61,103 nt of DNA from a virus (IMGVR_UViG_3300030090_003848:1-61103), one strand, 5' to 3'; positions 13,101-56,807 are shown, counted from the stretch's first letter. Notes: generated from the letters alone by a model not told the origin. A program made the numbers and translations.

Positions 13101-16100
13101 GGTCTGATTTCCATCAGCCCGCATTTCGCGAACTATAAACGCTATGTTTTCTTTGTCTTTCGCGAACTGGTTTTCCGCGTCCTCGATCTCCTGTGACATG
13201 ACCACTCTGGACCTCGCCTTGATTTCATCCAGCCGTTTGATGTGCGCTTGCTGAAGATCGTTGTCTGGGTCTGGGTCGATATTGTCCAGTGTTCCCACAG
13301 CAGCTTGGATAAGATCCCAAGGAACATCGTCGGGCGAAGAGTAATACTTATCAATCGCGGCGGTATACTTGTCGTGGTATTCCTCGACCATTTTCTCGGT
13401 AGTCCGCAAGAACGCATCTCTCTGGCGGGCATACTTCTGAACAGTCGGGTCCGTCTCGCCAACGAACATCTTAGCGAACTGTCTTTTCACTAACTTAAAT
13501 CCACTACCCGCTCCTGCGACGGGGAGTTCAAGCAGTTCAATGAAGTTTCCGTAGTCAACCTTGTCCGCGTCAAACTCAGATGGAAGATCTGATTCATCCC
13601 CGAAGACCCCCGAAAAAATGTATCTCTCGTCTGCTGGATTAAATCTAGCTTCCAATGGAATAAGATTAAAGTCTTCGTCGAGAGTGACTGGTGCTGCTGA
13701 CTTGATCAGACGCGAATCTCTGACCGCGATGTTCATGTCGTTGTCATCAAGAACTGGGAAGTTACCGTCTACGTCCGTAGCTACCCCGTTCTCTGAAATC
13801 AGCATCCCGTCATATTCGCTCAGGACGGCATCGACGACTTGTTGATTTTCCCAGAAATTCCAATGCCCGTTTGCAAGGTTACCTTTGTTCTTTTTGATCC
13901 ACTCTTCTATTGGGGTTGCCCGCCGGTCGATCACCTCATCTGTAATCTTGAACTCCGTGTCTTTATTCGGGCGGTTTTCATACAGCAAATCAGAATACTT
14001 TTCCCAGTCTTTACGCGGGTCGAATAGCTTATCTACTTTTAAGTAGACGGGGATAATCTCCAGACTTCTTGGGGGCGCTAGCTTTCCACTTTCTACGACA
14101 TTGTGGTTAACTTTGTTCTGCCCAAACTCCCGTGCAGAGTCTACATCAGGAGTAAAGAACGTCAGGTTGGTTGCCGTGCTAGTGCTTACTATATCGGACC
14201 CCGTCTTTTTCGGGTCGAAGATGGTCAGCACCCTATCGGTCCCGTGGTAGGCTACCCCGATTTTCCAGCCAGCAGCCCGTGCCGCCGCGTCTACCATTGG
14301 GCGGAGTTTGTTTCGGATCTCCTGCCCCTTCAAAGAGTTTATCTCTGGGGCGGGTTTGTCTTCTTCAATCTCATACTCAACCTTGGACCCCCAAGGTTTC
14401 ATAGCCATGATCAAGGCCGACTGCTCGTCGTAGGCCAGATGTTTTTCGACAAGCTCCATGAACGCCTTGCTCCCCATGCTCTCCTTAGCTTCGTTAAGGA
14501 CAGACATGTATTCCTTGTTAATCGCCCGAAGTTCTTTGACCGTCGGGTCAGGTAGAATCGACGAGATGGGTTTAAGGAATGACGGATCAGCGGGGAATCC
14601 GCTAAGGCCAATGGCCGACGGGAGGTCGGTGCTAAGACCCTCTGGGTCTGGGGGAAGGTTATCTACCTCAACTGCTCCGGCACCAGCTCCATCAGGATCT
14701 CCTCCGGCACGGGCGTCGGGTGATCTGGATACTCCAGCATCAGGAAGTCGCTTGAGTCGAACGCTTTCTGTGTAGGATTTATCTCTAGCAACCAAGCTGC
14801 GCTCGACTGGTGTGGCCCAGTCTGGGAGGCCATATCCTCCAAATCGCTCCTCGATAAGGTTCCTTGCTTCGCCATCGTCATTTGTTTTATTCCATATTTT
14901 ACGGGACTCATCAAGAACTGTTTCTTCGACCCCCTTCTTAGCGTAGCTCGCGGCCTCCCGTTTCTGCTCTGCGGTAAAGAGAGTCCTGACTTGCTCCCAC
15001 GTTATCGACTGAATTTCTCTAGTAGATAAGTTAGTCCCGTCCCGCCCGTTGATAAACGCGGCAGCGTCTTGGTGCGCTCTGAGGAACATGGCGTAGACCC
15101 CCATCATGCCAAGCTCGGCGTTGCCACTGCTGCTGATGCCAGTCCCCCCGAAGTTGTGGGTAACTTCATCACTGCCTCCTGCAACCGGAAGCATGAGCGC
15201 GGCACCAACCGCGTGTGTGTCCACAGTCCCGTCCATGATATTGGTCGGGTCTGCAATATTGTTGCGGAAGTTTCTGACCTTGTGCTGATTCCCGAGGAGG
15301 TCACTGTGGACCTCGGGGTCGTCGGTAAGGAAAGAATCAACCGCCTTTTGGATCTCGGGGTATGAACCCCAACCCACCTTTGCGATCTCGCCGTTCTTGG
15401 TCCGTTGCAACTGGACCCTGTTTCCTTCTGGGGTGATAATCGCGTAACCTCTCGGGTGATTCAAATAGTCAAAAGTCCTAACGAACCTAGCGGGTAGCGG
15501 ACGCATCCTCGCCAGTTCTGCGTTCCTGCGTTTCTTGAACGCCTTGTCACTTTCGCCCTTTTTCTGTGGTTCAGGTTCAAACGAGGCTGCTTCTTCGATG
15601 AGCTGGGCTAGGGTCTTGCCCTCCATGATGACTACCATAGCCTCGGCGCTCTTCTTAGCCTGAGCTTTTTTCTTGGCATGAGCCGCCGCAGTAAGCCCAG
15701 TCTTAGGAATGTTCTGGGACATCTCGATGAACGCATCGGCCATCTCCTTATCGAAGACAGTTTCCTGCTGTTTAGATACCACCTCCATTACTCGGCCAGC
15801 CAAGGACACGTTCTGGAACCAGTCCTTCTGTGGGCTGAGAACCGCGATGGTCGCAGCAGCTTGACCCGTCGTTATGTTGTATCGGGTAGCAAAGTCTTGC
15901 GCGATACGGTTGGCCCCCTCATACCAGAGCTTGGCCCGCTCCCTGATCTCAGGGTGCATAGTGTCATGCAGGTGAACCAAGTTCTCAACCATTCCCTTAT
16001 GCACACTCTCATACACCTCGTCTGCGAGCGGGCGCATCTTATCGAAGAGATCATTCTTGAAATCAGACTTCCATTTTTTGGCGGCGGCCAAAGTAGTCGG

Positions 16101-19100
16101 CGTGTCTGGGTCACGAACAAACTCGATCAGCCCTCTAACAACTTCCATCTGGGCTTCGTCCCCAGTGTATGGAATTTGCCCTGCCTTGGCCTTTGCTGGG
16201 GCAACGTATAGCTTCTTTGCAATCCGCGTAACAAACGCATCAGTCACCTTACGGGCTGATTTTATTTCGCTTATAACGGGCGTGGTTACCTTCGTGTCTG
16301 AGAACGCGGCTTTGTATCTGTCGTTCAGATACTTCAGTTCCCTGTAGGCCGCCGTGTCCTCACCCCTCGCCTCAACCGCTCGGCCTTTGCGGTTCTTCCG
16401 ACCTTTGAATATCTGGTATCCAGCAACGGTGGGCGCGTTGAGGACATAACTTTTCTGACGGGCGTAGTTCTCAAAGGTGCTGTCCTCCGCTCTGTCGCTA
16501 GCCCCCTTGCCTGTCGCGGTCCTGAAGCGAGCAGCGGGTTTGATATCCAAAGCAGAAATATCCAATGGCGCGTCCACCGCAGACAAATCTTCTGCCGTAT
16601 CGACCATGATCCCTGAACCCAAGCCGACTGTGCCTTCGCTTATAGCCTTTTGCCTTACCTCCGCCTTCGTTAGCTTTTTAGGTTGCGGCTTTGCCCTGAG
16701 ATTAGCTATCTGGATAGTCAGATCCAATACTTCTTCCAGTGCTGTGTTGGCGCTTTCGCTTGCCTTGTCTCCAAGGAGGAGACGTTTGATTATATCAATA
16801 AACTCTTGGAATACTGACTTATCGGGTGAGGCGGGTAATTTTCTAAGGAAGTCTTGGAAGTGGGGGTTTGACCAAGCGTCAGCGATAAACTCCTCTATAC
16901 TGTCTGCGGCGTAGCCAAGTTTCCGGTCGGCGGCAAGCCCGCGATGGAAGACATCTGGGTGCATCCTGAGTTCCTCTTCAATCTGTGGCTTCACCCAATG
17001 ATAGAGCTTAAACAAATCCCTGATCGGAGCAGGAACCTTGGCCACTGCCTCGGGGTCTTTGAACCTACCACGACTAATATAGTTCACGGGCAGTAGGTCA
17101 CGTATCTCGGTATCATTGGGCGGTAATTTCCCTTCAGTGACGGCCCGCCCACCATCAGTGCCTTCAGCATACACCCAATTATCTAGTGCTTGTCGTTTGC
17201 GTGACGGTCCACCGCTTGTTTTCGAGACTCCCGCTTCGTATAGCTTTATCATGCTGGCTGCGTGTCCAGACTCATGCGTGAGTGACATGCCCCAAGCCTG
17301 TGCTGGGGTGAAGTGCCGCCCAAACGGCAATGACGTAGTAATGGAGATTTGACCTTGGGGTCCAGTCGCCGCGGTCCCCCTTAGACCAAACTCAGGCCCA
17401 CCAGTTTGCGTCTTAAATTTGTGCAGTCTGCTCCGACCAGCTTGGGGACGATCCTCGGGTTCCCACTCTTCGATCCTGCGCTGCTCGGAGGGTGTCAGTT
17501 CCTCTTCAGGCTTAATCGCATGCCAAACTACTCTGGTCTTATCAAAATCTTTACGGCCACTCGGACTCATGCCGTTCCGTAAAATAAGCAACGACCCGAG
17601 ATACCTAGACTTAGTGTCTTTGGGGATCAGGTCGATAACCTCCCCCAACGACATAGACAGACGCATTTCGCCAGCGCCCCCCTCTTCAGGCAATGATTTT
17701 TTTGCTGCCTGCCAGCCCTTTGTTTCCATTATCTCAGCGAACTCTGCGTCCCCTTCATCGGCGGGGAACAAATCAGCAGATTCTGGTCCGAACATGATCC
17801 CTGAACCCAGAGCCGTTGCCTTGCGCGGCTTGGCCACAATCATGCTCGCGGTAGATGCGTCTTCGTCAATGTCGAGCACTTCAGATATCTCATCCTTGTA
17901 TGCTTTCAGTGGACGGTGTAGCTGGTAGCCTTTGGAGGTCGGCCCTTCTTTCTTACTCCTGTCGTAATAAACTGTGATGTAGATTTCTCCCCCGTCTTTT
18001 ACGGCATCGTTCGCTTGTTGGAGAACCCTGCGCCTAGCTCCTTTTTCTTTAATGACGTTAAGAACATTGGACAAAGTTGCAGTATCGGCTTGGCCCCCGT
18101 GGATCTTCTCGACCGCTTCCTCAACGCCCTCGGGGCGGGCATACGGGTCATACACATAATTTGTCACCCCCTTGCCTGCTAAGTATTCAGTTGCCAGTTC
18201 TGACTTGCCGCCGCCGATGTCGGCATTGACCGTTCCGGCCACCCAGTTTTTAACTCTACCAAACAAAGCCCCCCGTTGTGAAAGGCTGGTATCTTGAGAG
18301 CCTATTTTCTGGGTAACGCCTTTGAGATCCCATACATCACTTACCTGTATCCCTGAACCCAGATCCAATGTTCCCTGCTCCAGTGGCTGGGCTGGTCTGC
18401 GGAGATCGAATCCCTCATCGTAAGCGTATGCCACTTTGGCTGCATGATACTCACGCATCACTTCCATCAGCCTTACATCTGACATGTCATACAAGCTGTA
18501 GGAAATTATTTTGTCGCCACTATGGGAAAAGAACTCTATCTCGTCTTCATATTGGTTATCCCTGATATCTTTCCAACGCTCAAATTCTCTTTTGATCCAC
18601 GACTCGGGGTCGTTAATCATCCTGCCTATGAATATGTCTTCGATTTCGGTGAAGCCTTCACTGGCGTAGAAATCATAGAGTTGCTTTCCTTCAATGCCGC
18701 GCCTGTCGGTAGATCTGAAAAACAAAGCAATGTCAGAGCCTGCCTCATCCATCTTTCTAAGAAGTGCCTTGAGCATAGCCCTGCCTACTCCTTTGGATCT
18801 AAATTCGTTTGGAACGACAATATGCCGGAGATAAACATGCGGTTTTATCTCTTGGTCAGGGGCATCTAAGAAACTTTTTGTAAACCCTTCGCGTGCTTCA
18901 ACAGCGAACGCAGGGAACATGGGGTCTTCCCCCGCTTCGATTGTCTCGGAGATAAGGTCTGTGAAGCCGAGATCGGCTGGGTCTACCGCCGTGTAGACAA
19001 GACCAGTAAACTTATCCCGTTCCTGCACTCCCAATGATTCGGCACCCTTGACGGCTTCGAGATTTAGATCCCGACCCGTCAGCGTTATGCCCGATGCAAC

Positions 19101-22100
19101 TGCAAGCTCTTGTTCGTCAGGTTGATCGACGGACTTATTCATCCCCGCTTGTTTCTTGAGCAGCTCAAGGACAGCTAGGGGGTTATCCGCGTCAAATGTT
19201 TTAATGTTACTGAGGCTTCTAAAGCCGAGCTTCAGCGCCCTCAGTTCATTAACTACTCTGTTTATCGCCGTGTTAAGTTCTGGAGATATGTTCTTACGGG
19301 AACGGTAGTAACCCAATTTCTTCAGGAACCGTTGGAAATAACGGATAACATACTGGAGAATGCTGGGGTTAGTCCGAAGGAAAGCTACGTCTTCTTCAGT
19401 AGAAAATCCGTTCGTGGCCCGATCCGCGTGTTGGCGAAGCATTTCCTCCATTACTTGGATCTGAGTGGTTGGGTCTCCAGCCCGCCACTTCTCCTTCATC
19501 TTCTCTCTCATCGAGGCAGCTCCCGCAGAGTCATCGCCATACTCATCAATCGCTTTGTATGCATCGGCAATAGTCATCGCGCCGATAATCTCCTGTTGCT
19601 CTGTGCGAGTAATCGCAGCTACTGATGCGGCGTGGGCAATCTCTTCGTTAATGACGACCGAGATAATCCCCCGAAGTGTTTCGGGGGGAACTTTTCTCCC
19701 CGCGTTCCGACGCTGTAGGTCCACCATTAGCCCGTTTAATTTTTTAGGGTTTATGGTCAGGACTCCGGTATCGTTGTCCATCTTGGCCATCTGAGGGATA
19801 GTCTCGCTCACCTCTGTCCTTACTTCAGGTGGAATGACGGCTCCTTTAAGATACCTGACTATCCGCTCATAAGCGTCCCCTTCTTCTTTCTTAGCCGTAG
19901 CGTCAACTCCGGTTGCTTCTTGAATCGCAGAAGACAAATCCGCTTGCTCTTGCTGGGCAGTCGAGACCCCCTTGGTAATCGTATGGACTACCGTGTCGGG
20001 AGTGATCGGCTCTTTTGGGATCGTGTTTTCCGACACAGGGGTAAACGGGAAAACGCTTTCCTCGATAAAGTCTACGGCTTGCTTGGACTTTTTGTTGGGC
20101 AGTGCGAGGAACTCGTTAACCGTAATTAAATCTTTCTTTTTACGACGGCGAGCGCCTGCTTCCAAAACAGAAGAATGCGAAAGATCCAGAACGGCAGAGA
20201 ACGCGGCATCGAATCTAGGGGTTGCCCCCCGAAAAAACGAGCGGATGGCCATGATGATTCTTTGGAACGCGCTGTAAACAGCGGGTCCGCGATCCCCCGT
20301 CATTGTTTTTACAAACTGTTGGAAGTCAGTTGACGTAAGGAAGTGGGCAACGAACTCATCTACGTTTGCCAATGCATCATTGATCCGTGAATCGTTAAAC
20401 GAGAACACTCCAAGGTTTGGCAGTCTGCTCGACGGAGTAGTGATCACATTCCTTATGGCATACTCTGAACCCATCGCAGCGTAGTCTTTCTTGAGTTCAG
20501 AAATAGTGGCCTCCAAAGTTTGGATCGCAGCCGTTTCCTGTGGGGTTCTAGCCGATTCGGGCTTCCCTGTAATGTTAGTTACATAAGCGTGGATAAGCTC
20601 ATGCAGAAGAGTGTCTGCCAGCCCCCTCGGATTATGGCCATTTATATTCAAGGAGATAGCCGGAGTTCCATCGGAGAGTCTGTCAAACTTGCCCGCGTAA
20701 GGTTGATTTGTTTCGTCAATCGACAACTCAATAGTCTTAATAAAATTAGGAGACTGAAGAAGGAGCCGCGCCAGCGATACAAGATGCGTGTCGTATTCTT
20801 TCTGAGCGCGTTGCGAAAGCCCAGCAATTCTGTTGAGGGCCTCAATGATAGAGTCGGGGTTTCCGCTCTCTAAGCCCAACGCGGCTATCGCGTCATTGTT
20901 GAGCATCTGGACATACCCCTTGCCCATGTTGTGGGGCTGTGACCGAAGAAAAAGAGTGCGAACAGATTGCTTAACGTAATTAAAGAAGTTAAGCGTTTCT
21001 AAATCGGTAGCGGGTTCACCCTTAATGTTCTCAACTGTATCTTTAATCAGGGACAGGTAATCCGCGTCAGACTTAGGAGTCCCTTCAATAGAATTAGAAG
21101 TAAGCCCCATCAGACGGAGCGCATCCCTGACTGGAGCAGCCATGTCGAATTGGCGTGTCCTTAGTTCTTTTTGAAACAGGAGGCTGATAGAGTTGGACTT
21201 AGCGTTGCCCTGAGCCATCCAGTTCACAAGATGACCCCAAAGGGTTTTATTAGTCGTCCGGTTAAAATCAATGTTAGTTGTCTGGAAGACTTCGTTCTGA
21301 ACAATCCCTACAATCCGACGACGAAGTGCCGAGTCAGCAGTCATAGCTGCGACGGCATTAGCTTGAACTTCTTTATACGCGGCTGTGATCCTCGCTGGGG
21401 CGAACGGAGGGGCTATCTCTTCTTGAGGCGGAACGTATGTGTCTTCTGCTTCTACCTCTGGGTTAAAGTCTGGGTCACCTTCTAACTCAGAAACTTCGTC
21501 AACAGATAACGTAGACACAAAAGATTCTTTCTGGTGCGCCAACCTAGACTCCTGTTCCGACACATATGCATCAGCAATGCGGCGTCCGGCACTTGGTAAT
21601 GATGAGTAACCAGAAAAATCTGCCCCTTCAAACAACGCCTCCATTGAACTCAATCGAAGTTCTAACAGCGCAGCTTCAGTAAACTCGGGAGCAAGTTCTC
21701 CTTTAGAGGGTGCGAGAAACGGGGCGACTGACTCGTTAGATTCCAGACGGTCCAAGATATCCTGATTGGAAATTTTTTCGTCTGGGTTAAACGGGGAGGT
21801 CACCATGCCTTCTGGGTCTGCTAATCCCTTAGCCCGAAGATTAACTACGCGCTCAGTCAACTTGACCAACCTTGTGTAATCTGGTTGCAACGACAACACG
21901 CGGTCCATAGGTGTAACCGCAGACACAAGGCCCCCTGACTCAGGGATAACTATATCAGAAACAAAAATCTTGTCGTTAAACTCAGTAAACCTGAATGAGG
22001 GGTTTATCTGGTTTTTAATAAAAGACCTTACGTTTTTATCGACAACAACAGGAATCCCACGCTCAAGGAAAGTGAGCATATCCAAGGGGTCGTTGTTAAA

Positions 22101-25100
22101 CATGCCGACGCCGAACCGATTTACGAAAATTTTCCCGTCCCCATAGGCAGAGTTCATGGGGATGTCCCCTTCCAACGGTGAATAAGAAATACGAAGGAAC
22201 TTACTTTTGATTCCTTCAGCAATCTTTGCATTTGCCGAGCGGATAAACGCATCCGAAGTGGTCCGCTGATTAACGGGAATCCCCAGTCTTTTTAGTTTAG
22301 CAGGCGTAATGACATGTCGGAACCCGCTTGCTATAAGATTGTCAATCGCTTCGATTTCATCAGGGGCCTCAGTGACTTCGTCCAAGGTAACGTCCGAATC
22401 AATCTTGAGATTTGAAAGGGCTTTGACTCGGTCTTTGAACGCTTGCCCGATCAACTCTTCAGCTTGTTCTGGACTCACCGCTTTTCCTTCTTGGACACGT
22501 TTCCGCAAAGCCCGACCGACCGATGATTCGCCAGCAACTTCAGCGGAAGAAGCCTCACGGTTCATCTTAACGTAAAGATCTTTTGCCCGATTTATTTCGG
22601 CAACCCGCTTCCCGAATCTTGCTTCGATTGCTCCTGCTTCGCCCACCCTGCGGGGGTCTAGTATTTTAGACCGCTGCGGGGGCAAGGCTTCTTCGATAAC
22701 AGGTGGCGCGGGGGTTGGAGAAATAAGATCCCTTACAGATTGGTGGTCTGCATTTTCTACATAGCTAGATGAACCAGCAGGCATATTCATCCGGTTCATC
22801 AGAGCGCCTTTAATTTCCATCGTGGCTGGGTTGGCGTTCGTAGCTACGCTGGCCTTGTCTGCCATGACATCAGCAATAGCTGACGCTACGGAATCGGGGT
22901 TGACCTTATCCTGCAAAGCCAACTCCATTTGAGGGTCCGAAGTAATACCGGAGGGGAGCGGAGTTTCAGTTTCTTCCGCCGCAGGCTCTTCCTCGACAGT
23001 CAACTGGAGCAGGTCGTTGGGAGCGATGTCTGCCCTAGCGTCCTTCCGTTTCATGTCGGACACGGCTTCTTGAAATGCCTTAGCCGTTATTGGTGACCCG
23101 TTCGCGTTGAGATCAGCGACGGCCTCATTGATGATGTCGTCATAAAACTGAGCCATTTGGTTGGACCTAGTTATGGCTGGCCGGATAGATTTAAGGCCGA
23201 GTTGAACCGCCGGAACAGAACCACCCATTACTCCTCCCAAGGCAACCGCATGCCACGTTTGCTGCATCCGCTCTAACATGGGGGTGTCTTCATGGAGAGC
23301 GACATCGGTTATCATGCCGTTGACAAACTCATCAATCCCTTCCTCAACTCCTTCGTCTACAACATTCTTGGCTACACCTTTGAGACCACCAAAAGCATAC
23401 TTCTTCATAGTAGCTTTGATAGCTTTCTGGGCAGAGCTAAGGAGGTCACCGTCCAGACGCCCAGTGATGCCTCTGGCTACAACCCGCATATCTTTTGGAG
23501 TCAGTCCTTTAAGAAGGGCATCTTCAAGGCCCCCCTTACCTATAAGAGAAAACGCCGACGTAAGGACGCCAGTAAATGTTCCTGCCATAAGCATGGCCCC
23601 TAAAGACCTGTCGTGCGCTTCTTCTTCGGTGATGTCGGGGTTCTGCTTTAACTGGTTATACACGGCCCCGTAAGTAGCCGACCCTGACCTAGTAGCCGCA
23701 GGAATAAATACAGCGGGAGCAATACCTAGTTTTTGGGCGAGGGTTCCGTTGTATGTCTTCAGTAATTGGACTGCTCCCTCGGGAGAACCTTTGACTAAGC
23801 CTTTTTGAATAAGATCTTCAGCTTGTTCAAAGGCGGATTTCCCTGCTTGGCGTCTGAATTGGTTAGACGTAATTGCTTTTACAACGCCCTTAGCCGCGAG
23901 GCTTGCCGACGTTTTCCCACCCGCTTTCAACGAAGCATAAGCAAGTGCGCCAGTTCCACCTATGGGAGCGGTTCCGACCGCCAAAAGACCAGTAGCCGCT
24001 ACATCCATAAGCATGGGGAAAGCTGTTTCGGCTACGTCTTGAAGGAATGGAAAATCCTCCCCGAACACAGACGCCAGTTGCCTGCGGTCGGCATTTTTCT
24101 GAGACACAGAAGCCAGATAATCTTTAGCCGGATCGAGTCCAAAAGCCGCAGCCACTCCAGCAAAGGGGAGCAAGAACCCATTAACAATGGATGCCTTCAC
24201 GCCTGCTGCCCGTTCTTTGAAAACATTATAGTTGTCTTCGTCCGCTACGAAACCCTCAAGAATCTTGTAGTCGGGAACTCCCGCCCTACGACCAATCATA
24301 AGAGATTGGTTCCAGTCCTCGGACACACTGTCTTGTGACGACAGGAATTTGTCCATAGTTGTGAACTCAGACTTGAGGACATTCACACGCTGTTTATCGA
24401 GCATATCCTTAACGCTCGGGCTAAGGTTGGGGTGCGCTGCTAGTGTCTTGTCATAAACGTCTTTGTTTAACATCGCGGGTAGCGGCATGGACGGAAGTCC
24501 GAAACCACCGAACCTCAAGTTCTTACCCACTTCGTCGTCCTTGTCGTAGGACTTAAACATTTGTTTCTGCATCGCGTTATCATGGATAATCTGCTTCATC
24601 GCAGCCTCCATGTCTTCGGGACGCATATTAAATTTAAGCGCATACTTAGCCGCGAGTTGGCTATGGTCTATGCCTCGGGCTTCTTCGACTGCCTTTCTCC
24701 GTTGTTCAGCTTTATCAAAGGCTTCCTCTTGCCCCATGATCCGGCTTAGTAGGCTTCTTCCAAATCTAGGAACAGCTTCCAGCGTCTTTAGAATTTTATC
24801 CCCCGTATCAAATTCTTTTTCGGCTTGTGCAGTCGATAAGCCATCAAGCTGAATTGCAAAATCGGGGTTCTGTTCCCGCTCTTCCTCAAGTAAGTTAACG
24901 GCGCTTACTATCTTTTTTAATTTGTAAAGCGGTAGCTTATGCCCGTCAGGGGTTTCTAGCTGTGGCATAACCGAGAGCGCATCCCGCATGGAAATGTTTG
25001 CTCTGGACGAAGCCTTCAGGGCGCTGACAAGGCCCATTTTTTCGGCGTTCTCTCCTACAAGGATCTCCCCATCAGATAGCCTCGCAATGGGGAGTTCTCC

Positions 25101-25577
25101 TGACTCGACCTGTGACCGGAAATTTTCGTCTTGCCGCGTGTTTAACGTGGATTCTACTTTTTCTTTTAGGGGCTGGAGTTCTTCCAGATATTCCGCAGAC
25201 GGGGCTTCTACGGAAGACGCTTGCAAGTAGTCCTTAAAAGACTGCTGGTCTGGGTCGTTGGGAGAAAGCGACTGGTAAAACGATCTCGCCCGTTGGTCAA
25301 ACGAACTGCCTTTTTCGAGGTCAGAAATCCTCTGCTCAATTTCTTCTGCGTTCTCCCCGTCAGAAGAAAGAATCCCTTCTTGTTGCAAAGAAAGGGTAAA
25401 CCCTTCTTTGATCTGACCCTCCACTGTTGGGTTGTAAGCTCTTGCCTTAATGTATTCTTCCCGAAGATAGTCTCCGTATTTCAAGCGGCTTTCGAGAGGA
25501 TCATCATAGGGATTCTCGGAGGACCATTCAGAAAAACCAAGTGGCGTAACAGGTGGGGTATCAGATTGCTCTGTCAT
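10173..25577 (-). CDS. Giant polyvalent (probably virion-injected) protein, 5134 aa, with zincin, GNAT, methyltransferase, glycosylase-like and ADP-ribosyltransferase domains
   Basis: HELIH (aa ~1659); degenerate NEEIAH (~1977); GNAT EFRSKGVG..FY...GF (~2258); MTase DIGGG..YDPY..SNVLNVI (~2453); HESGH..EEFIA (~2768); WY..LSPQ..KVRNF..TVDTH..Q..TW (~3247); YHGT..FFT..PVYL..YDG..IKSA (~3777); helical N- and C-terminal regions typical of large ejection proteins. Confidence 0.85.
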   Translation of the reverse strand: MTEQSDTPPVTPLGFSEWSSENPYDDPLESRLKYGDYLREEYIKARAYNPTVEGQIKEGFTLSLQQEGILSSDGENAEEIEQRISDLEKGSSFDQRARSFYQSLSPNDPDQQSFKDYLQASSVEAPSAEYLEELQPLKEKVESTLNTRQDENFRSQVESGELPIARLSDGEILVGENAEKMGLVSALKASSRANISMRDALSVMPQLETPDGHKLPLYKLKKIVSAVNLLEEEREQNPDFAIQLDGLSTAQAEKEFDTGDKILKTLEAVPRFGRSLLSRIMGQEEAFDKAEQRRKAVEEARGIDHSQLAAKYALKFNMRPEDMEAAMKQIIHDNAMQKQMFKSYDKDDEVGKNLRFGGFGLPSMPLPAMLNKDVYDKTLAAHPNLSPSVKDMLDKQRVNVLKSEFTTMDKFLSSQDSVSEDWNQSLMIGRRAGVPDYKILEGFVADEDNYNVFKERAAGVKASIVNGFLLPFAGVAAAFGLDPAKDYLASVSQKNADRRQLASVFGEDFPFLQDVAETAFPMLMDVAATGLLAVGTAPIGGTGALAYASLKAGGKTSASLAAKGVVKAITSNQFRRQAGKSAFEQAEDLIQKGLVKGSPEGAVQLLKTYNGTLAQKLGIAPAVFIPAATRSGSATYGAVYNQLKQNPDITEEEAHDRSLGAMLMAGTFTGVLTSAFSLIGKGGLEDALLKGLTPKDMRVVARGITGRLDGDLLSSAQKAIKATMKKYAFGGLKGVAKNVVDEGVEEGIDEFVNGMITDVALHEDTPMLERMQQTWHAVALGGVMGGSVPAVQLGLKSIRPAITRSNQMAQFYDDIINEAVADLNANGSPITAKAFQEAVSDMKRKDARADIAPNDLLQLTVEEEPAAEETETPLPSGITSDPQMELALQDKVNPDSVASAIADVMADKASVATNANPATMEIKGALMNRMNMPAGSSSYVENADHQSVRDLISPTPAPPVIEEALPPQRSKILDPRRVGEAGAIEARFGKRVAEINRAKDLYVKMNREASSAEVAGESSVGRALRKRVQEGKAVSPEQAEELIGQAFKDRVKALSNLKIDSDVTLDEVTEAPDEIEAIDNLIASGFRHVITPAKLKRLGIPVNQRTTSDAFIRSANAKIAEGIKSKFLRISYSPLEGDIPMNSAYGDGKIFVNRFGVGMFNNDPLDMLTFLERGIPVVVDKNVRSFIKNQINPSFRFTEFNDKIFVSDIVIPESGGLVSAVTPMDRVLSLQPDYTRLVKLTERVVNLRAKGLADPEGMVTSPFNPDEKISNQDILDRLESNESVAPFLAPSKGELAPEFTEAALLELRLSSMEALFEGADFSGYSSLPSAGRRIADAYVSEQESRLAHQKESFVSTLSVDEVSELEGDPDFNPEVEAEDTYVPPQEEIAPPFAPARITAAYKEVQANAVAAMTADSALRRRIVGIVQNEVFQTTNIDFNRTTNKTLWGHLVNWMAQGNAKSNSISLLFQKELRTRQFDMAAPVRDALRLMGLTSNSIEGTPKSDADYLSLIKDTVENIKGEPATDLETLNFFNYVKQSVRTLFLRSQPHNMGKGYVQMLNNDAIAALGLESGNPDSIIEALNRIAGLSQRAQKEYDTHLVSLARLLLQSPNFIKTIELSIDETNQPYAGKFDRLSDGTPAISLNINGHNPRGLADTLLHELIHAYVTNITGKPESARTPQETAAIQTLEATISELKKDYAAMGSEYAIRNVITTPSSRLPNLGVFSFNDSRINDALANVDEFVAHFLTSTDFQQFVKTMTGDRGPAVYSAFQRIIMAIRSFFRGATPRFDAAFSAVLDLSHSSVLEAGARRRKKKDLITVNEFLALPNKKSKQAVDFIEESVFPFTPVSENTIPKEPITPDTVVHTITKGVSTAQQEQADLSSAIQEATGVDATAKKEEGDAYERIVRYLKGAVIPPEVRTEVSETIPQMAKMDNDTGVLTINPKKLNGLMVDLQRRNAGRKVPPETLRGIISVVINEEIAHAASVAAITRTEQQEIIGAMTIADAYKAIDEYGDDSAGAASMREKMKEKWRAGDPTTQIQVMEEMLRQHADRATNGFSTEEDVAFLRTNPSILQYVIRYFQRFLKKLGYYRSRKNISPELNTAINRVVNELRALKLGFRSLSNIKTFDADNPLAVLELLKKQAGMNKSVDQPDEQELAVASGITLTGRDLNLEAVKGAESLGVQERDKFTGLVYTAVDPADLGFTDLISETIEAGEDPMFPAFAVEAREGFTKSFLDAPDQEIKPHVYLRHIVVPNEFRSKGVGRAMLKALLRKMDEAGSDIALFFRSTDRRGIEGKQLYDFYASEGFTEIEDIFIGRMINDPESWIKREFERWKDIRDNQYEDEIEFFSHSGDKIISYSLYDMSDVRLMEVMREYHAAKVAYAYDEGFDLRRPAQPLEQGTLDLGSGIQVSDVWDLKGVTQKIGSQDTSLSQRGALFGRVKNWVAGTVNADIGGGKSELATEYLAGKGVTNYVYDPYARPEGVEEAVEKIHGGQADTATLSNVLNVIKEKGARRRVLQQANDAVKDGGEIYITVYYDRSKKEGPTSKGYQLHRPLKAYKDEISEVLDIDEDASTASMIVAKPRKATALGSGIMFGPESADLFPADEGDAEFAEIMETKGWQAAKKSLPEEGGAGEMRLSMSLGEVIDLIPKDTKSRYLGSLLILRNGMSPSGRKDFDKTRVVWHAIKPEEELTPSEQRRIEEWEPEDRPQAGRSRLHKFKTQTGGPEFGLRGTAATGPQGQISITTSLPFGRHFTPAQAWGMSLTHESGHAASMIKLYEAGVSKTSGGPSRKRQALDNWVYAEGTDGGRAVTEGKLPPNDTEIRDLLPVNYISRGRFKDPEAVAKVPAPIRDLFKLYHWVKPQIEEELRMHPDVFHRGLAADRKLGYAADSIEEFIADAWSNPHFQDFLRKLPASPDKSVFQEFIDIIKRLLLGDKASESANTALEEVLDLTIQIANLRAKPQPKKLTKAEVRQKAISEGTVGLGSGIMVDTAEDLSAVDAPLDISALDIKPAARFRTATGKGASDRAEDSTFENYARQKSYVLNAPTVAGYQIFKGRKNRKGRAVEARGEDTAAYRELKYLNDRYKAAFSDTKVTTPVISEIKSARKVTDAFVTRIAKKLYVAPAKAKAGQIPYTGDEAQMEVVRGLIEFVRDPDTPTTLAAAKKWKSDFKNDLFDKMRPLADEVYESVHKGMVENLVHLHDTMHPEIRERAKLWYEGANRIAQDFATRYNITTGQAAATIAVLSPQKDWFQNVSLAGRVMEVVSKQQETVFDKEMADAFIEMSQNIPKTGLTAAAHAKKKAQAKKSAEAMVVIMEGKTLAQLIEEAASFEPEPQKKGESDKAFKKRRNAELARMRPLPARFVRTFDYLNHPRGYAIITPEGNRVQLQRTKNGEIAKVGWGSYPEIQKAVDSFLTDDPEVHSDLLGNQHKVRNFRNNIADPTNIMDGTVDTHAVGAALMLPVAGGSDEVTHNFGGTGISSSGNAELGMMGVYAMFLRAHQDAAAFINGRDGTNLSTREIQSITWEQVRTLFTAEQKREAASYAKKGVEETVLDESRKIWNKTNDDGEARNLIEERFGGYGLPDWATPVERSLVARDKSYTESVRLKRLPDAGVSRSPDARAGGDPDGAGAGAVEVDNLPPDPEGLSTDLPSAIGLSGFPADPSFLKPISSILPDPTVKELRAINKEYMSVLNEAKESMGSKAFMELVEKHLAYDEQSALIMAMKPWGSKVEYEIEEDKPAPEINSLKGQEIRNKLRPMVDAAARAAGWKIGVAYHGTDRVLTIFDPKKTGSDIVSTSTATNLTFFTPDVDSAREFGQNKVNHNVVESGKLAPPRSLEIIPVYLKVDKLFDPRKDWEKYSDLLYENRPNKDTEFKITDEVIDRRATPIEEWIKKNKGNLANGHWNFWENQQVVDAVLSEYDGMLISENGVATDVDGNFPVLDDNDMNIAVRDSRLIKSAAPVTLDEDFNLIPLEARFNPADERYIFSGVFGDESDLPSEFDADKVDYGNFIELLELPVAGAGSGFKLVKRQFAKMFVGETDPTVQKYARQRDAFLRTTEKMVEEYHDKYTAAIDKYYSSPDDVPWDLIQAAVGTLDNIDPDPDNDLQQAHIKRLDEIKARSRVVMSQEIEDAENQFAKDKENIAFIVREMRADGNQTPEEIRKLGSESRKRIKEAKDRLNKRINEARKRADARKGAETEIEEQSFKETLEKSRMANKQVALGGRDAALSELADTAPDLFTVIVDLRRLTDELSAKARDLFGRGGHDVIAKFDNNMGLYITRRYQMFSDSGYVKRILTSKEEKDVAVREAAIEFMRGQWIENKTDELMRDNAGNREFTLQDAKDESYRLYTKSSNGGASLGFQMAAEFLNSWRGQGELTEAQDFASAFELAGMPKTVAPRMSGGLKAIVKNLKERSDIPKPLADLMGANNLPESSIDNLLYSFGTVAKIAAHQSFLEKMKQAGTQAETPWLLTADQYNKALGENYSEFIEYKKILSTSADSGLNPLAGMYVHPDIYNSIRPMFQQTPRSGDDASSQLLHGSMRAAQLATGSAMGFKTLFSVGFFLRNMLGNVLFFGPAQGYWKAGKDIWSGDVGEGRGMSAWQGVRRALKGNKAATNAYLRELEGLDVFGNEVRSQIMLRLINGEETFDGVQEQIVNLQKKLSDKNLIKQGGAKYTSMMNTLARLASAMDSFYKIGYYENELAILRKAQEADRLLPPDQQTYANMSDLELKQEAAEIIGDTAQSYSRALPIIKKISGSGWGLVFAPFIRFTAEVPRIVVNTYKRGFRDIRSKNPVMRRRGYNRVLSMTAIAGGLSMAVPTLLRSLLSEMGEDEDEAFRMSLPPYLRNHTFWLWKTDDGEIGSLDLTYLNPFSIIVDPLLRGMEHMVRGEPFTAVEKMTTAAILQPYLGEQILAGSIIDVMENRNAKTNMPIVESSQPLHIRMLNKLKYVGREAYGPRTPLKAIEAIKAGFGDAPESFADSPFGIVVYDSLPVRPRFYKPEDQFSRVVYQLRDEHRRAGRAFNELLTPKGMTEGAVEAVHKSVLSDRKRVNQKLMQAMRGMKGLGMTNQSIYGAMTAARYGDRRSKLLFAGFMENPVPTKNVTESLMRTAQGQQRLRTLMRAHGERERFLTVER
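16605..18362 (-). repeat. Dispersed junction repeat CATGATCCCTGAACCCA (16605-16621, 17793-17809; 13-bp core at 18349-18361), encoding LGSGI
   Basis: Exact DNA identity including synonymous positions; each copy lies at a domain boundary of the giant gene. Confidence 0.9.
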
Positions 25578-53434: not shown

Positions 53435-54754
53435 CTACGCAGCAGGAGTGCTGCTGGTGCGCTGGAAGAGGATGACGTAACCGAAGTTGGTCTTGATCGG
53501 CTTGGAGGCCGAAGCAAGGATACCACGGAAGAATCCGATGGTGCCGTCGGGGTTCAGCGTAACGTCAGGAATGTTCGTCCACTTAAACTCGCCCTTGTAG
53601 TTGACGGGGTCAAACTTCAGACCACTTGCGTTGGTCACGGGGGCAGGAATCAGCGACTCCATCACGTTGTCAACGAGCACGAAGGCTGCTTCATAATCGG
53701 CAGAATCGTATGCGGTGTTGACGATAACCTTGTTGGTTGCCGAACCGCTGGTGTTGCTGACGGTGTAAGGATCGACACGCTCCAGTTTGTCGGTGGAAGC
53801 GTTGAACGTAAACCGAGGAGCGAGGTCGTCAACCAAGTGGTAGAAACCACGGAAGGACTTCTCGACTCCGAGCGGAGCGATGAGGTCGGAGACCCGAGCG
53901 TTGTTGTAACGAACGTCGTCGCGGAATCCTGCTTCGGTCTGAAGCTGGTAGGATGCCTCAGACGAGAGGACGATAGAGAACACTGGACGGCCATTCTCAC
54001 GACCGTAAGCGTTAGCTCCGGCACCAGCCCGAACGAGCTTGAAGTAAACATCGTCAAGAATCTTGTTGGAGATGTTAGCGTCGATGTCGCAACCGTTGTT
54101 GCCAGTATCGACGTTAATGTCGGTGATGACCGTTCCTTCAAGGTTGGTGTTAGTCGCTGTGCCTGTAGTTGAGCATTCTACGACGTTGTCGCAGAGCTTG
54201 GAATACTCATCGCGGTAACGCTCTTCCCAAGAGTTGCGGGTAGCTTCCTTCAGGATGTCCATGATAGCCCGAAGCTGCTCAGTCCGGTGGGCGGTGTAAC
54301 GAAGCTCCTCGACGTTAATCCGAGGGGATTCGATGATAGCCCGCTCAAGGCTGTAGCTCTTCTGGACTTTGGTGAAGTCGAGCGTGTTGACGCTTGCCTT
54401 CTCAGTGCCCATCGCAAGAGTCTGATCCTGCTGGTTCGCGGACATACCATTAGAGGCAGTTCCGTGAGTCGATCCGATAGGGGAGAAGTCAACGCCGACG
54501 CTAATTCCAGAGTCAGTGAAGTCCTTGTTGATCGGGGACAGTGGAAGAGCACGGTCGTAAATGAGGGTGCTCAGTTGATAGCCCATTCCTTCGGGGAAGG
54601 TGGACTGCTTGATAAGGTCGATCCACGGGGAAGTGTGGAGGGTCGCCTTGTGGATGTCTGCACCAATACGCCCCGCTTCTTGGGTAAGAACAGTATCTAC
54701 TGCTGCGGAGGCGTCCGTTGCAAAGTCATGTGGTAGCGCGAAATCTGCGGCCAT
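53435..54754 (-). CDS. Major capsid protein
   Basis: 439 aa, strong codon bias, downstream of portal and scaffold, followed by hairpins; no catalytic motifs. Confidence 0.8.
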   Translation of the reverse strand: MAADFALPHDFATDASAAVDTVLTQEAGRIGADIHKATLHTSPWIDLIKQSTFPEGMGYQLSTLIYDRALPLSPINKDFTDSGISVGVDFSPIGSTHGTASNGMSANQQDQTLAMGTEKASVNTLDFTKVQKSYSLERAIIESPRINVEELRYTAHRTEQLRAIMDILKEATRNSWEERYRDEYSKLCDNVVECSTTGTATNTNLEGTVITDINVDTGNNGCDIDANISNKILDDVYFKLVRAGAGANAYGRENGRPVFSIVLSSEASYQLQTEAGFRDDVRYNNARVSDLIAPLGVEKSFRGFYHLVDDLAPRFTFNASTDKLERVDPYTVSNTSGSATNKVIVNTAYDSADYEAAFVLVDNVMESLIPAPVTNASGLKFDPVNYKGEFKWTNIPDVTLNPDGTIGFFRGILASASKPIKTNFGYVILFQRTSSTPAA

Positions 54755-54840
54755 TGTATCGTGGGGTAAAAAAGTTGGATGAGAGGATAGACCGCTCCCC
54801 CTGTCTGGGGCTTAAAGCGGCCTGACTGAATCGGTGAATA

Positions 54841-54962
54841 CTGCCTGAATAGAACTAATTATACGGCTAGAGCAACCGGCAGATTCGGGTGGTATGGTTT
54901 GGAACGCAGCCCAAGAGCAGCGACTTCGTAGAACTATTTTTGGCTAGAGCAACCTCGTCGCT
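54841..54962 (-). ncRNA. Tandem structured RNA motif in the MCP leader (54919-54962 and 54841-54882)
   Basis: Two copies of GGTTGCTCTAGCC-N5/7-TAGTTCTA, each closed by a different complementary stem. Confidence 0.65.
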
Positions 54963-54971
54963 ATGTTTTGC

Positions 54972-55000
54972 ATTCTTAACTAAGAATACAAAAATGTCAA
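54972..55000 (-). promoter_or_regulatory. Promoter candidate TTGACA-N17-AAGAAT for MCP
   Basis: Perfect -35, imperfect -10; just upstream of the tandem motif. Confidence 0.5.
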
Positions 55001-55008
55001 TAGGGGAA

Positions 55009-56214
55009 TTACCTGTTCAAATTTCGCGACCCAAACGCCGCGTTGATGGCGTCCTCAAACGAGGTGTCGGCTCCAGCGCCACTGGCAACCTGACCAGAGG
55101 TCGGGGCATTGCCAGACATGGTAGGTTCCGCGCCCTCGTATTCCGCCAGCCTGTCAGTCAGGGCGTTATTCTCCGCCCGCATCGCAACAAACTCGCGAAC
55201 CACCGTGGGGAGGAGCTGTGCGGAAATCGAGTTGAAGGTAAAATCTACAGGGTGCATGACAGAGGGGTCGGTCTCTGCCGCTTTTTCCTGAATAGCCTCC
55301 ATGTCCAATCCGTCTATCCCCGCCAAGAAAGGTAGCTTTTGTTGAACTCTTTCGGCTACATTTTGTGCGACTTCCTTTCGGACACGCAAATTTTCAGCCG
55401 CCTCATGCTGGGATTGGCGCTCCGCAAGGAGTTCCGCTTCTTTTAAAGCGGCTTCTGCGTTTTCCCACATGTTATTCCTGCGCTCAAGAATGGGGTCAAT
55501 TTGATTAACCAAATGGTAAATTTTTGCGCGGTCCCTGTCTGAGGCGTCGTGCAAGATGTCGTTCAGGGCGCGGTCCTGTTCGTCTTGGTCCGACAGGGAC
55601 ATCACATCGATCAAGGCGTCAGCATCGGCTCCGTATTTGTCGGCTATCTGGCCAGCTTCTTCCACAATAGTTTGCAATGGAACAGCTACCGACTGCTGGT
55701 ATGCATCAGTTTGTTCCAAATCACTGAACATTTGAGCCTGCTCATACTCAGTAATTTTTTGCTGGAGAGCTTGGACATCATTGTTTTCAGCCAACCCAGT
55801 AAGTTCCTGCACTTTTTGCTCATACTCTTGCTGCTGCTGACGAAGAGTTTGAAGCTCGGTATTACTAGATCTTAATTCTTCTTTAAGCTGCTTGAATCGA
55901 GATGCAGCTTTCGGGGTCCAGTCGTCACCGATATCCTCGGAAAGGTCGGAGGTGGGGTCGGGGGTGTCGTCCTCAATAGCTTCTGGCTCGGGGGCAGGTT
56001 CTGGTTCCGGCTCAGGTTCTGGCTCCGGCTCGGGCGCAGGCTCAGGAGTAGTAACCGCCTGTGACCCGCCCGCTTCCATTCCAGAGAACGCAGCATCTAA
56101 CGCATCCATAAAAGAAGATCCTGAATCTTCGCTAGCGTCGGGGACGTTAGCGGTTACTTCTACTACGGGATCTGCTGATACTTCAGCTACGTCATTCGAT
56201 GTGGGTCCACTCAT
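55009..56214 (-). CDS. Capsid scaffolding protein
   Basis: Acidic, (PE)n repeat, coiled coil; between portal and MCP. Confidence 0.75.
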   Translation of the reverse strand: MSGPTSNDVAEVSADPVVEVTANVPDASEDSGSSFMDALDAAFSGMEAGGSQAVTTPEPAPEPEPEPEPEPEPAPEPEAIEDDTPDPTSDLSEDIGDDWTPKAASRFKQLKEELRSSNTELQTLRQQQQEYEQKVQELTGLAENNDVQALQQKITEYEQAQMFSDLEQTDAYQQSVAVPLQTIVEEAGQIADKYGADADALIDVMSLSDQDEQDRALNDILHDASDRDRAKIYHLVNQIDPILERRNNMWENAEAALKEAELLAERQSQHEAAENLRVRKEVAQNVAERVQQKLPFLAGIDGLDMEAIQEKAAETDPSVMHPVDFTFNSISAQLLPTVVREFVAMRAENNALTDRLAEYEGAEPTMSGNAPTSGQVASGAGADTSFEDAINAAFGSRNLNR

Positions 56215-56488
56215 CTGGAGTTATGCTTGTTTGGTTATTTGCGGGAGGGTTAGCTAATTTATACAAATCATTAAGCGCATCTCGGTAACCAGCATACCAA
56301 GCGTGGCGCTGTGCGTTCCCCGCTTCATCTTGCAAAGTATTAAACGAGGGTCCAGCAATTTCTTTTAATGTGGCCGCAGCCACCTTGAAAACTTCAGATT
56401 CAAGAATTTCGTTAAGCTGATTTACAGAAGATAAATCTTTATACCAGCGAGCTAACGGAATTGGAGCGGTTATTTCTTTTTTAGGCAT
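56192..56488 (-). CDS. Small helical protein between portal and scaffold
   Basis: 98 aa; AGYRDAL..L helix; synteny. Confidence 0.65.
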   Translation of the reverse strand: MPKKEITAPIPLARWYKDLSSVNQLNEILESEVFKVAAATLKEIAGPSFNTLQDEAGNAQRHAWYAGYRDALNDLYKLANPPANNQTSITPDEWTHIE

Positions 56489-56807
56489 CGGTTGATCTTT
56501 GCTCGCGCAACATCGCCTTAGCGAGGATAGCGTAGTTTACAATGTCATTACATGCATCCTCGACGCTTTCGTCGGGGACTTGAAGCTCGTTGTCGTTAAC
56601 GAATGATCGTATGCGCTGGATTTTGTCGAGCACACGCATCAACAATCCGTGGACAGGGTGGATACCAATCACCGCGCTACTTTTGAAATTAGCAAACGGA
56701 TCGGTGGCATCCTTGCCGCCCGTGTAGTCTGAATTTTTTGTTCGCATGATCTCCTTGCACTCGCGGCAAGTTTCATCATGCAACTCAAGAAGTTCTTTAG
56801 AGTTCAC
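56481..56807 (-). CDS. Nucleotide-modification-associated domain protein (DUF1599-like, MazG-like helical fold)
   Basis: KNSDY..DPFANF..R..DK..R..ESVED...D..NYA. Confidence 0.8.
   Translation of the reverse strand: MNSKELLELHDETCRECKEIMRTKNSDYTGGKDATDPFANFKSSAVIGIHPVHGLLMRVLDKIQRIRSFVNDNELQVPDESVEDACNDIVNYAILAKAMLREQRSTDA

Follow-up and report, generated by a model that had tools for sequence, protein, structure and literature searches.

A tandem, helix-closed pseudoknot predicted in the leader of a probable phage capsid gene

The operator of phage T4 gene 32 is an H-type pseudoknot near the 5′ end of the leader; between it and the start codon the mRNA is open and A/U-rich, and the operator acts in cis on one gene. 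The put sites of phage HK022 are two bulged stem-loops, without pseudoknots and different from each other, which make RNA polymerase resistant to termination. Among riboswitches, the preQ1-I aptamer follows the order stem 1, short loop, stem 2, return of stem 1, A-rich loop and return of stem 2, and aptamers in tandem are known for glycine and guanidine-II. Exonuclease-resistant RNAs (xrRNAs) thread their 5′ end through a ring, and the H-type knots of luteovirus frameshift sites, which carry an A-rich third loop, are mechanically stable. Antitoxins of the ToxI kind consist of head-to-tail, near-identical repeats of ~36 nt adjoining an endoribonuclease toxin gene, the N4 virion RNA polymerase uses promoters before early genes that are DNA hairpins of the template strand, with a stem of 5-7 bp and a 3-nt loop, and many of the known small ribozymes reside in phage DNA. 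No phage protein is made in larger amounts than the capsid protein and, to our knowledge, very little is known about control of its synthesis at the level of RNA in DNA phages.

A large survey of viral sequences has reported 8,495 covarying intergenic RNA candidates from IMG/VR, of which 879 sit no more than 25 bp upstream of a gene with a known domain, and it mentions the T4 gene 32 mRNA pseudoknot operator (Fremin et al. 2023, PMC10690425).

The window analyzed here is a stretch of 61,103 nt that makes up an entire IMG/VR virus record, with an estimated completeness of 98%. Its phage genes include a family-A DNA polymerase, a helicase, a primase-like protein, a large terminase, an amidase endolysin and tail-like proteins, and no tRNA gene was found in the whole window. 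The interval 54755-55008 lies between the stop codon of a 401-aa open reading frame (55009-56214) and the ATG (54754) of a 439-aa open reading frame. All genes surrounding this interval are on the − strand, and the leader heads a ~14 kb block of structural and lysis genes on that strand. Read on the mRNA, the leader runs from a predicted promoter through unit 1, a small hairpin, unit 2, a third hairpin and an open stretch to the ATG. Its features and those of the flanking genes are as follows.

55009-56214, − strand: gene for a 401-aa protein with a Pro/Glu-rich repeat; weak PARP-repeat match; phrog_15186 (unknown function).
55000-54972, − strand: predicted sigma-70-like promoter; −35 box TTGACA at 55000-54995, 17-nt spacer, −10 box AAGAAT at 54977-54972.
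54962-54919, − strand: pseudoknot unit 1, AGCGAC-ga-GGUUGCUCUAGCC-aaaaa-UAGUUCUA-cgaa-GUCGCU.
54962-54957 with 54924-54919, − strand: closing helix P1 of unit 1.
54954-54942, 54941-54937 and 54936-54929, − strand: box A (GGUUGCUCUAGCC), A-rich linker L3 and box B (UAGUUCUA) of unit 1.
G54954-C54942, G54953-C54943 and U54952·G54944, − strand: pairs of stem S1 in unit 1.
C54947-G54934, U54946-A54935 and A54945-U54936, − strand: pairs of stem S2 in unit 1.
Next to S2 of unit 1, − strand: S2 extension, with C·U and U·U mismatches and then G54950-C54931.
54914-54899, − strand: candidate small hairpin between the units, UUGG-GCUGCGUU-CCAA, from the alignment consensus.
54886-54836, − strand: pseudoknot unit 2, CUGCC-GGUUGCUCUAGCC-guauaau-UAGUUCUA-uuca-GGCAG, in a helix longer than written here.
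54886-54878 with 54845-54836, − strand: P1 of unit 2, GAAUCUGCC with GGCAGUAUUC, one bulge.
54877-54865, 54864-54858 and 54857-54850, − strand: box A, L3 (GUAUAAU) and box B of unit 2.
54822-54790, − strand: third hairpin, GGCCGCU (54822-54816) with AGCGGUC (54796-54790) and an inner CCCC/GGGG(G) stem.
54789-54752, − strand: pyrimidine- and A-rich stretch, predicted unpaired, ending in the ATG (54754-54752).
53435-54754, − strand: gene for the probable HK97-fold major capsid protein, 439 aa, assigned with Foldseek.

The original prediction had described both copies of the motif and the third hairpin from the sequence of this leader. Direct reading of the − strand agrees with its transcription of all three, and the helix of copy 2 extends further, to GAAUCUGCC/GGCAGUAUUC; the GAA/UUC base of this P1 is itself conserved across copy-2 units. 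The hairpin between the units is conserved as TTGGGCTnnGTTCCA within the sub-clade of the window, by the consensus of the 15-leader alignment A2. The third hairpin is retained with altered sequence in the sub-clade (AGACCAC/GUGGUCU, AGAUCGCU/AGCGGUCU and AGAUUGCU/AGUGGUCU), a different hairpin occupies its site in other sub-clades, and a U run follows it on the 3′ side in some relatives only (L106 and L094). Between the third hairpin and the start codon, at ~20-50 nt from the ATG, three relatives (L090, L093 and L097) have CUUAA repeated four to five times in a run; the capsid protein of L097 is 93% identical to that of the window, and the leader of the window has no such repeats. No Shine-Dalgarno sequence precedes the capsid ATG, which is unremarkable because most genes of this phage lack one. 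This scarcity hints at a host that makes little use of Shine-Dalgarno sequences.

The 439-aa protein has no Pfam, PHROG or PDB-sequence match and no tblastn match across 50,697 phage records. Its AlphaFold model, built from 29 homologues, is poor (mean pLDDT 54.9). A Foldseek search with this model returned nearly all HK97-fold phage capsids, with Pan3 at E 8.5 × 10−4 (probability 0.99) and the N4 capsid at E 0.013, and Phage_capsid_3 occurs on 11% of the members of one Atlas neighbor cluster. The assignment of the downstream gene as the major capsid gene, made in the original prediction, is therefore probable, given that the top structural matches are HK97-fold capsids and that the model is poor. 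The 401-aa gene occupies the position of a scaffold gene. Within it, 55922-56115 is a Pro/Glu-rich low-complexity repeat with a weak Trypan_PARP match, and the very high summed contig depth over this repeat comes from many unrelated contigs in four runs and is uninformative. A 108-aa protein within the head-gene block (56481-56807, − strand) matches DUF1599, "nucleotide modification associated domain 1" (E 4.1 × 10−7). A 5134-aa open reading frame (10173-25577, − strand) carries "polyvalent"-type domains (ART-PolyVal, methyltransferase, GNAT acetyltransferase and DUF7178) and a faint match to the N4 virion RNA polymerase (phrog_2206, E 1.6 × 10−6).

The motif is rare in the window and tied to one gene outside it. 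Two instances of the composite pattern GGTTGCTCTAGCC-N3-10-TAGTTCTA are present in the 61,103 nt, compared with none in any of 100 dinucleotide shuffles, which excludes chance for the composite motif; the 13-mer alone, allowing up to two mismatches, occurs three times, a count reached by 14 of 100 shuffles and thus unremarkable. With filters off, a covariance model of the core gave the two units as the sole sites in the window (47.5 bits for unit 2 and 41.8 bits for the other), with the next best site at 11 bits. In the loci of 80 relatives, all 98 matches that score 27 bits or more are on the coding strand, just upstream of the capsid gene. Pattern scans for the exact core retrieved 87 stretches from IMG/VR and at least 116 marine metagenome contigs from JGI. 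In 79 of the 87 IMG/VR loci, the last copy is followed, 64-240 nt downstream, by a gene for a capsid-protein homologue in the same orientation; of the 116 metagenome loci among the matches listed, 107 have such a gene, also in the same orientation, no more than 400 nt downstream. The remaining 8 IMG/VR loci and 9 metagenome loci (the latter among the matches listed) end too early to be judged. A capsid homologue thus stands after the core in 186 of 186 assessable loci among the IMG/VR and metagenome matches listed, none of which has another gene context. Matches in prokaryote genomes were set aside as chance: they were to a pattern of 17 fixed bases, and the 120 loci listed are single-copy, have no capsid homologue nearby and lack the TA of the motif.

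Capsid identity to the window ranges from 39% to 95% across the exact-core loci, and the core is identical in all of them, as the scan demanded. Variation in the core was judged instead from a protein-based set, because the scans required an exact core. This set comprises 80 loci with capsid homologues at 52-93% identity, and the compact motif, or a variant with at most five substitutions, is present in 50 of them. Copies are spaced 52-90 nt from start to start. Loci that appeared to have a single copy have a first copy ending in UAGUUCAG in place of UAGUUCUA, so the tandem arrangement is the rule in the compact family.

We next consider the helix that closes each unit. Because the linkers that join P1 to the core are of variable length (0-6 nt), the covariance model covers the core only and P1 was assessed by comparing cognate with non-cognate flanks. 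There are 105 distinct P1 helices among 132 unique copies, with a mean of 8.7 pairs and a minimum of 5, compared with a mean of 5.4 pairs when the 5′ flank of one copy is matched with the 3′ flank of another; the copies share descent, so these counts are not independent events. In a 120-copy set, the duplex energy of P1 was −9.2 kcal/mol for cognate and −4.0 kcal/mol for mismatched flanks (Mann-Whitney p = 3 × 10−55). The claim that the closing stems co-vary is thus supported, with flanks that pair in 132 of 132 unique copies through 105 helix sequences. The original prediction had also held that a core conserved without pairing flanks would point to a DNA operator, and the pairing of flanks in every one of the 132 copies favors RNA.

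The strand of the structure can be read from its wobble pairs. G·U pairs make up 120 of 1147 P1 pairs and would be A·C on the opposite strand, the predominant U·G wobble in S1 would likewise be a mismatch on the other strand, and P1 is more stable on the sense strand in 78 copies compared with 40. These strand-specific pairs, together with the fixed orientation to the gene, argue for RNA rather than duplex DNA or the template strand. The central proposal, that a selected RNA structure exists in tandem on the mRNA strand of the capsid-gene leader, is borne out by the covariation of P1 and by this strand evidence.

Within P1, compensatory changes indicate that each unit folds as an H-type pseudoknot, since the 5′ strand of S2 sits within S1. 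S1 has the form GGY/RCC, with GG at positions 1-2 and CC at positions 12-13 of box A bracketing the 5′ strand of S2, and its third pair varies among U·G, C-G and U-A. S2 joins three nucleotides of box A to the first three of box B. Its third pair (A10-U1′) is A-U in 50, G-C in 13, C-G in 1 and U-A in 1 of 66 aligned copies of the compact family, and its covariation exceeds that of shuffled and slid controls. Relatives show S2 as CCG/CGG, UCG/CGA, CCA/UGG, UUG/CAA, UUA/UGA, CUG/CAG and CAC/GUG (the last found by eye), and there are at least 10 different compensatory pair sets. S2 is preceded by GCU and followed by UUC, both invariant, and these would extend the stem as U·U, C·U and G-C. C6 and U5′ are swapped jointly in six unique copies, giving GUU...UCC, and the extension positions are Watson-Crick in a third sequence family described below. 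The linker L3 is 5-9 nt long, A-rich and usually ends in AAN; a hairpin takes its place in some relatives. The original prediction of two conserved boxes held within a stem was correct in the layout of the core and had missed that the boxes pair with each other as a pseudoknot. In all, the module measures 45-50 nt, with ~16 invariant nucleotides and a 21-nt core common to both units. A simple hairpin within box A (GGUU/AGCC) was rejected: position 10 changes to G, C or U jointly with the first base of box B, and its supposed partner, U4, stays constant. The minimum free energy of the leader is −50.7 kcal/mol compared with −50.4 kcal/mol for shuffles (z = −0.08), in a fold whose scoring leaves pseudoknots aside; the leader thus shows no unusual thermodynamic stability against shuffles, a result that is uninformative.

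The 30 of 80 loci without the compact motif comprise ~19 with an extended form, 7 with a third family, 2 that end too early and 2 that are ambiguous. The extended form, found in 16 loci by a loose regular expression and in 3 by eye, has a longer first loop and a hairpin inserted in the linker. The third family consists of P1, GNCCU-GCCAGU-RGGNC, an A-rich loop and RCUGCGCUA; it is closed by P1 and occupies the same place, and one locus carries a compensatory CAAU/AUUG change. We conclude, from pairing kept across divergent families, that the P1-closed pseudoknot in the capsid leader is conserved beyond any single sequence. Extended relatives (L101, L102, L112, L116, L119, L123 and others) also carry a second conserved element ~60-130 nt upstream of the capsid ATG, GAAGC-uaa-GGCC..GCC-ug-UCGC-..-GCUUC-ug-CGAC (elsewhere drawn ending in GCUUC..GCGA). 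This element matches no Rfam family, and a pseudoknot of another kind can be drawn for it.

Rfam 15 at the gathering score gave no match in the whole window and none in the loci of 12 relatives, and searches at E values up to 10 gave none in 54300-55500; the leader is empty of Rfam 15 families, and the original failure to match it to a known riboswitch stands. A literature search yielded no paper with the core sequence, and a keyword search found no description of a phage capsid-leader pseudoknot. The candidates of Fremin et al. 2023 (PMC10690425) resemble the capsid-leader motif in data source and in kind of object; the passages of that article consulted here describe no capsid-leader pseudoknot, and the motif may be among its anonymous candidates. 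On the covariation presented above, we regard the capsid-leader element as an uncatalogued structured RNA, absent from Rfam 15.

Where the transcript begins bears on what the element could do. The promoter-like site of the window matches the consensus at 10 of 12 positions. A comparable promoter, defined as a TTGACA-like box (at least 5 of 6), 16-18 nt and NANNNT, is present in 34 of 46 unique tandem leaders, ending 14-31 nt (mostly 14-21) before the first G of unit 1, and TTGAC is invariant or nearly so in alignment A2 (15 leaders). The argument for a promoter rests on this conservation because the region contains promoter-like sites at about the frequency of chance (18, with 15.3 expected). 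As a consensus match, the promoter places the predicted transcript start near 54966-54964, ~211 nt before the ATG at 54754, consistent with the ~210-nt leader proposed originally. With the start assumed ~7 nt after the −10 box, the first base of P1 in unit 1 would coincide with the predicted 5′ end of the transcript or lie a few nucleotides from it, a location that the original prediction did not include. In one run, assembled RNA-library contigs extend over 54769-54914 and over portions of the capsid gene, and they span unit 2 (54809-54914). This cover is compatible with transcription and is weak evidence, as start, strand and level are unreadable from contigs; the gaps over unit 1 and the upstream gene carry no information.

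The promoter region of the window also contains a 13-nt inverted repeat, TTTTGCATTCTTA/TAAGAATACAAAA (54966-54993, 92% complementary), across the spacer and the −10 box. At this position, relatives carry inverted repeats that differ in sequence (ATCCTAA/TTAGGAT, GCATATT/AATATGC and TTCTTGTT/AACAAGAA), and perfect ones of at least 7 nt occur in 11 of 45 leaders, many of them closely related, compared with 4% of shuffled controls. The repeat could be a hairpin in transcripts reading through from upstream genes, or an operator.

We tentatively favor, at somewhat less than an even chance, a cis-acting leader element, putatively bound by a factor, that would set the stability or translation of the capsid mRNA. 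A docking site is favored because ~16 nucleotides are invariant despite freely varying helices, three families keep the fold as though evolving together with a partner, and two sites would suit an oligomer. Host sigma-70 polymerase would start the transcript near copy 1, and P1 would give the mRNA a paired 5′ end. The ~16 invariant nucleotides, more than a plain stabilizing hairpin needs, would form the docking surface for a conserved trans-acting factor, most likely a protein of the phage or the host, whose binding would set the lifetime of the capsid mRNA, its translation or both, in the manner of the T4 gene 32 pseudoknot operator. The two copies would then be two sites for an oligomeric or cooperative binder. 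The invariant nucleotides could instead serve the tertiary fold alone. Pfam and PHROG scans of the phage open reading frames recognized no RNA-binding protein. No terminator-like or anti-terminator hairpin was found on the − strand of the leader in the window and no masking of the start codon, the start region being open in the minimum-energy fold, and so a simple on/off mechanism is not visible. A further proposal, which we consider unlikely, is that the tandem pseudoknots are sensors that read the progress of infection, through the pool of a replication or assembly protein or through a small molecule, and release capsid synthesis from a constitutive host-type promoter.

The same features could be explained without a partner. 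A self-sufficient protective fold at the very 5′ end, in which P1 caps compact knots of the triplex type, might block decay that depends on the 5′ end (entry or scanning by RppH/RNase E, or RNase J) and yield a long-lived late mRNA, with the copies redundant. In 34 of 46 leaders the predicted transcript start coincides with P1 of copy 1 or lies close to it; searches for an alternative switch-like fold, a terminator and masking of the start codon found none; an H-type topology with an A-rich third loop is the mechanically stable kind seen in luteovirus frameshift knots; and the invariant residues could be tertiary contacts. Emory, Bouvet and Belasco reportedly found in 1992 that a 5′ hairpin of any sequence stabilizes E. 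coli mRNA, and against that background ~16 invariant nucleotides seem to exceed the need. P1 encloses both ends, which leaves no xrRNA-like threading of the 5′ end, and in a fold that ignores pseudoknots the leader is of ordinary predicted stability (z = −0.08). A protective fold would therefore explain the 5′ position and the lack of a switch but not the frozen sequence, and we hold it to be rather unlikely, though it is the main rival of the docking site. Placing the invariant nucleotides in loops and mismatches, with the stems free, is also what a tandem riboswitch would do, each pseudoknot being an aptamer for a small molecule or ion that alters the fate of the capsid mRNA; the order of elements is that of preQ1-I-type aptamers, and tandem aptamers exist, as in glycine and guanidine-II. 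However, no Rfam riboswitch matched at E values up to 10, the motif precedes a single phage structural gene (186 of 186 assessable loci listed) and never metabolic or transport genes, and no expression platform is visible. The two other families, which share topology and site but differ in the "pocket" nucleotides, better fit a macromolecular partner or pure structure, and a riboswitch is accordingly doubtful.

The remaining explanations are less probable still. The elements stand directly after the promoter, at the head of the ~14 kb structural and lysis block, and like put they comprise two structured units, so nascent tandem structures might bind polymerase and confer resistance to pausing or termination in the late operon; a hairpin and U run follow in some relatives (L106 and L094). 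Most leaders, that of the window included, have no terminator to overcome, the put stem-loops have no pseudoknot and nothing ties the leader RNA to polymerase, which makes such a role very unlikely. A small self-cleaving ribozyme, trimming transcripts (those reading through from upstream included) to a 5′-OH end before the capsid gene, would fit the ~45-50 nt, the pseudoknot and the invariant unpaired nucleotides, all in the range of small ribozymes, many of which are found in phage DNA. We regard it as highly improbable, given no Rfam ribozyme match, no recognizable known catalytic core and RNA-library contigs that bridge unit 2 (54809-54914), though partial cleavage is compatible with the last of these. 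Finally, the boxes are invariant as DNA and might be an operator for a DNA-binding protein or a single-stranded hairpin promoter or origin, and the giant polyvalent protein faintly resembles the N4 virion RNA polymerase (E 1.6 × 10−6), a user of hairpin promoters. Yet compensatory changes in S2, S1 and P1 are unexpected for a duplex operator, the G·U pairs are specific to the mRNA strand, and a late structural gene with a sigma-70-type promoter ahead of it is not where an early hairpin promoter would be looked for; we consider this the least probable of the explanations weighed here.

Invariant unpaired nucleotides, freely covarying helices, a pseudoknot, duplication and a strict tie to a single gene are hallmarks of functional RNAs, and the ~45-nt size suits direct structural and biochemical work. 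If the units bind a factor, they would offer a handle on late-gene control in an abundant group of uncultured marine phages and a compact RNA-partner pair for engineering. If they are self-sufficient stabilizers, viral RNAs that resist nucleases would have a counterpart in bacteria. Were the sensor reading true, late genes would be timed by RNA instead of a sigma factor or activator in a widespread clade of uncultured marine phages, with three co-evolving families.

Compared with the systems described at the outset, the units are unlike type III toxin-antitoxin RNAs (ToxI) in that only the 21-nt core is common to the copies, the flanks differ and the spacing is 52-90 nt; their neighbors are the 401-aa and capsid genes, with no ToxI-like endoribonuclease gene adjoining. 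They differ from N4 hairpin promoters as mRNA-sense pseudoknots with wobble pairs that precede a late structural gene. With the tandem xrRNAs of flaviviruses and the triplex pseudoknots of luteoviruses they share compact folds and an A-rich loop, and their duplication resembles redundancy, but those RNAs belong to eukaryotic RNA viruses, lie in 3′ UTRs or coding regions and have no sequence relation to the units, and threading through a ring is impossible in a unit closed by P1. HK022 put and the present leader each place two structured RNAs just after a phage promoter at the head of a long operon, whereas the units here are pseudoknotted, the leader of the window has no terminator and the action of put on polymerase is demonstrated. 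The preQ1-I aptamer (RF00522) has the same small H-type topology and an A-rich third loop, a resemblance and not membership: the units have no RF00522 match, are enclosed by P1, have an S1 of three pairs and keep other nucleotides invariant, and preQ1-I sits before queuosine genes, whereas the units stand before a capsid homologue in 186 of 186 assessable loci among the matches listed. The T4 gene 32 operator regulates the gene of the single-strand-binding protein that binds it, whereas the gene here is HK97-fold capsid-like; there is no sequence similarity, and here there are two units, each closed by P1 and known from sequence. The two leaders are alike in having a pseudoknot proximal to the 5′ end (a predicted end in the present case) and a stretch, here predicted to be unstructured, that leads to the AUG, and the CUUAA repeats in the open stretch of some relatives recall the A/U-rich stretch of gene 32.
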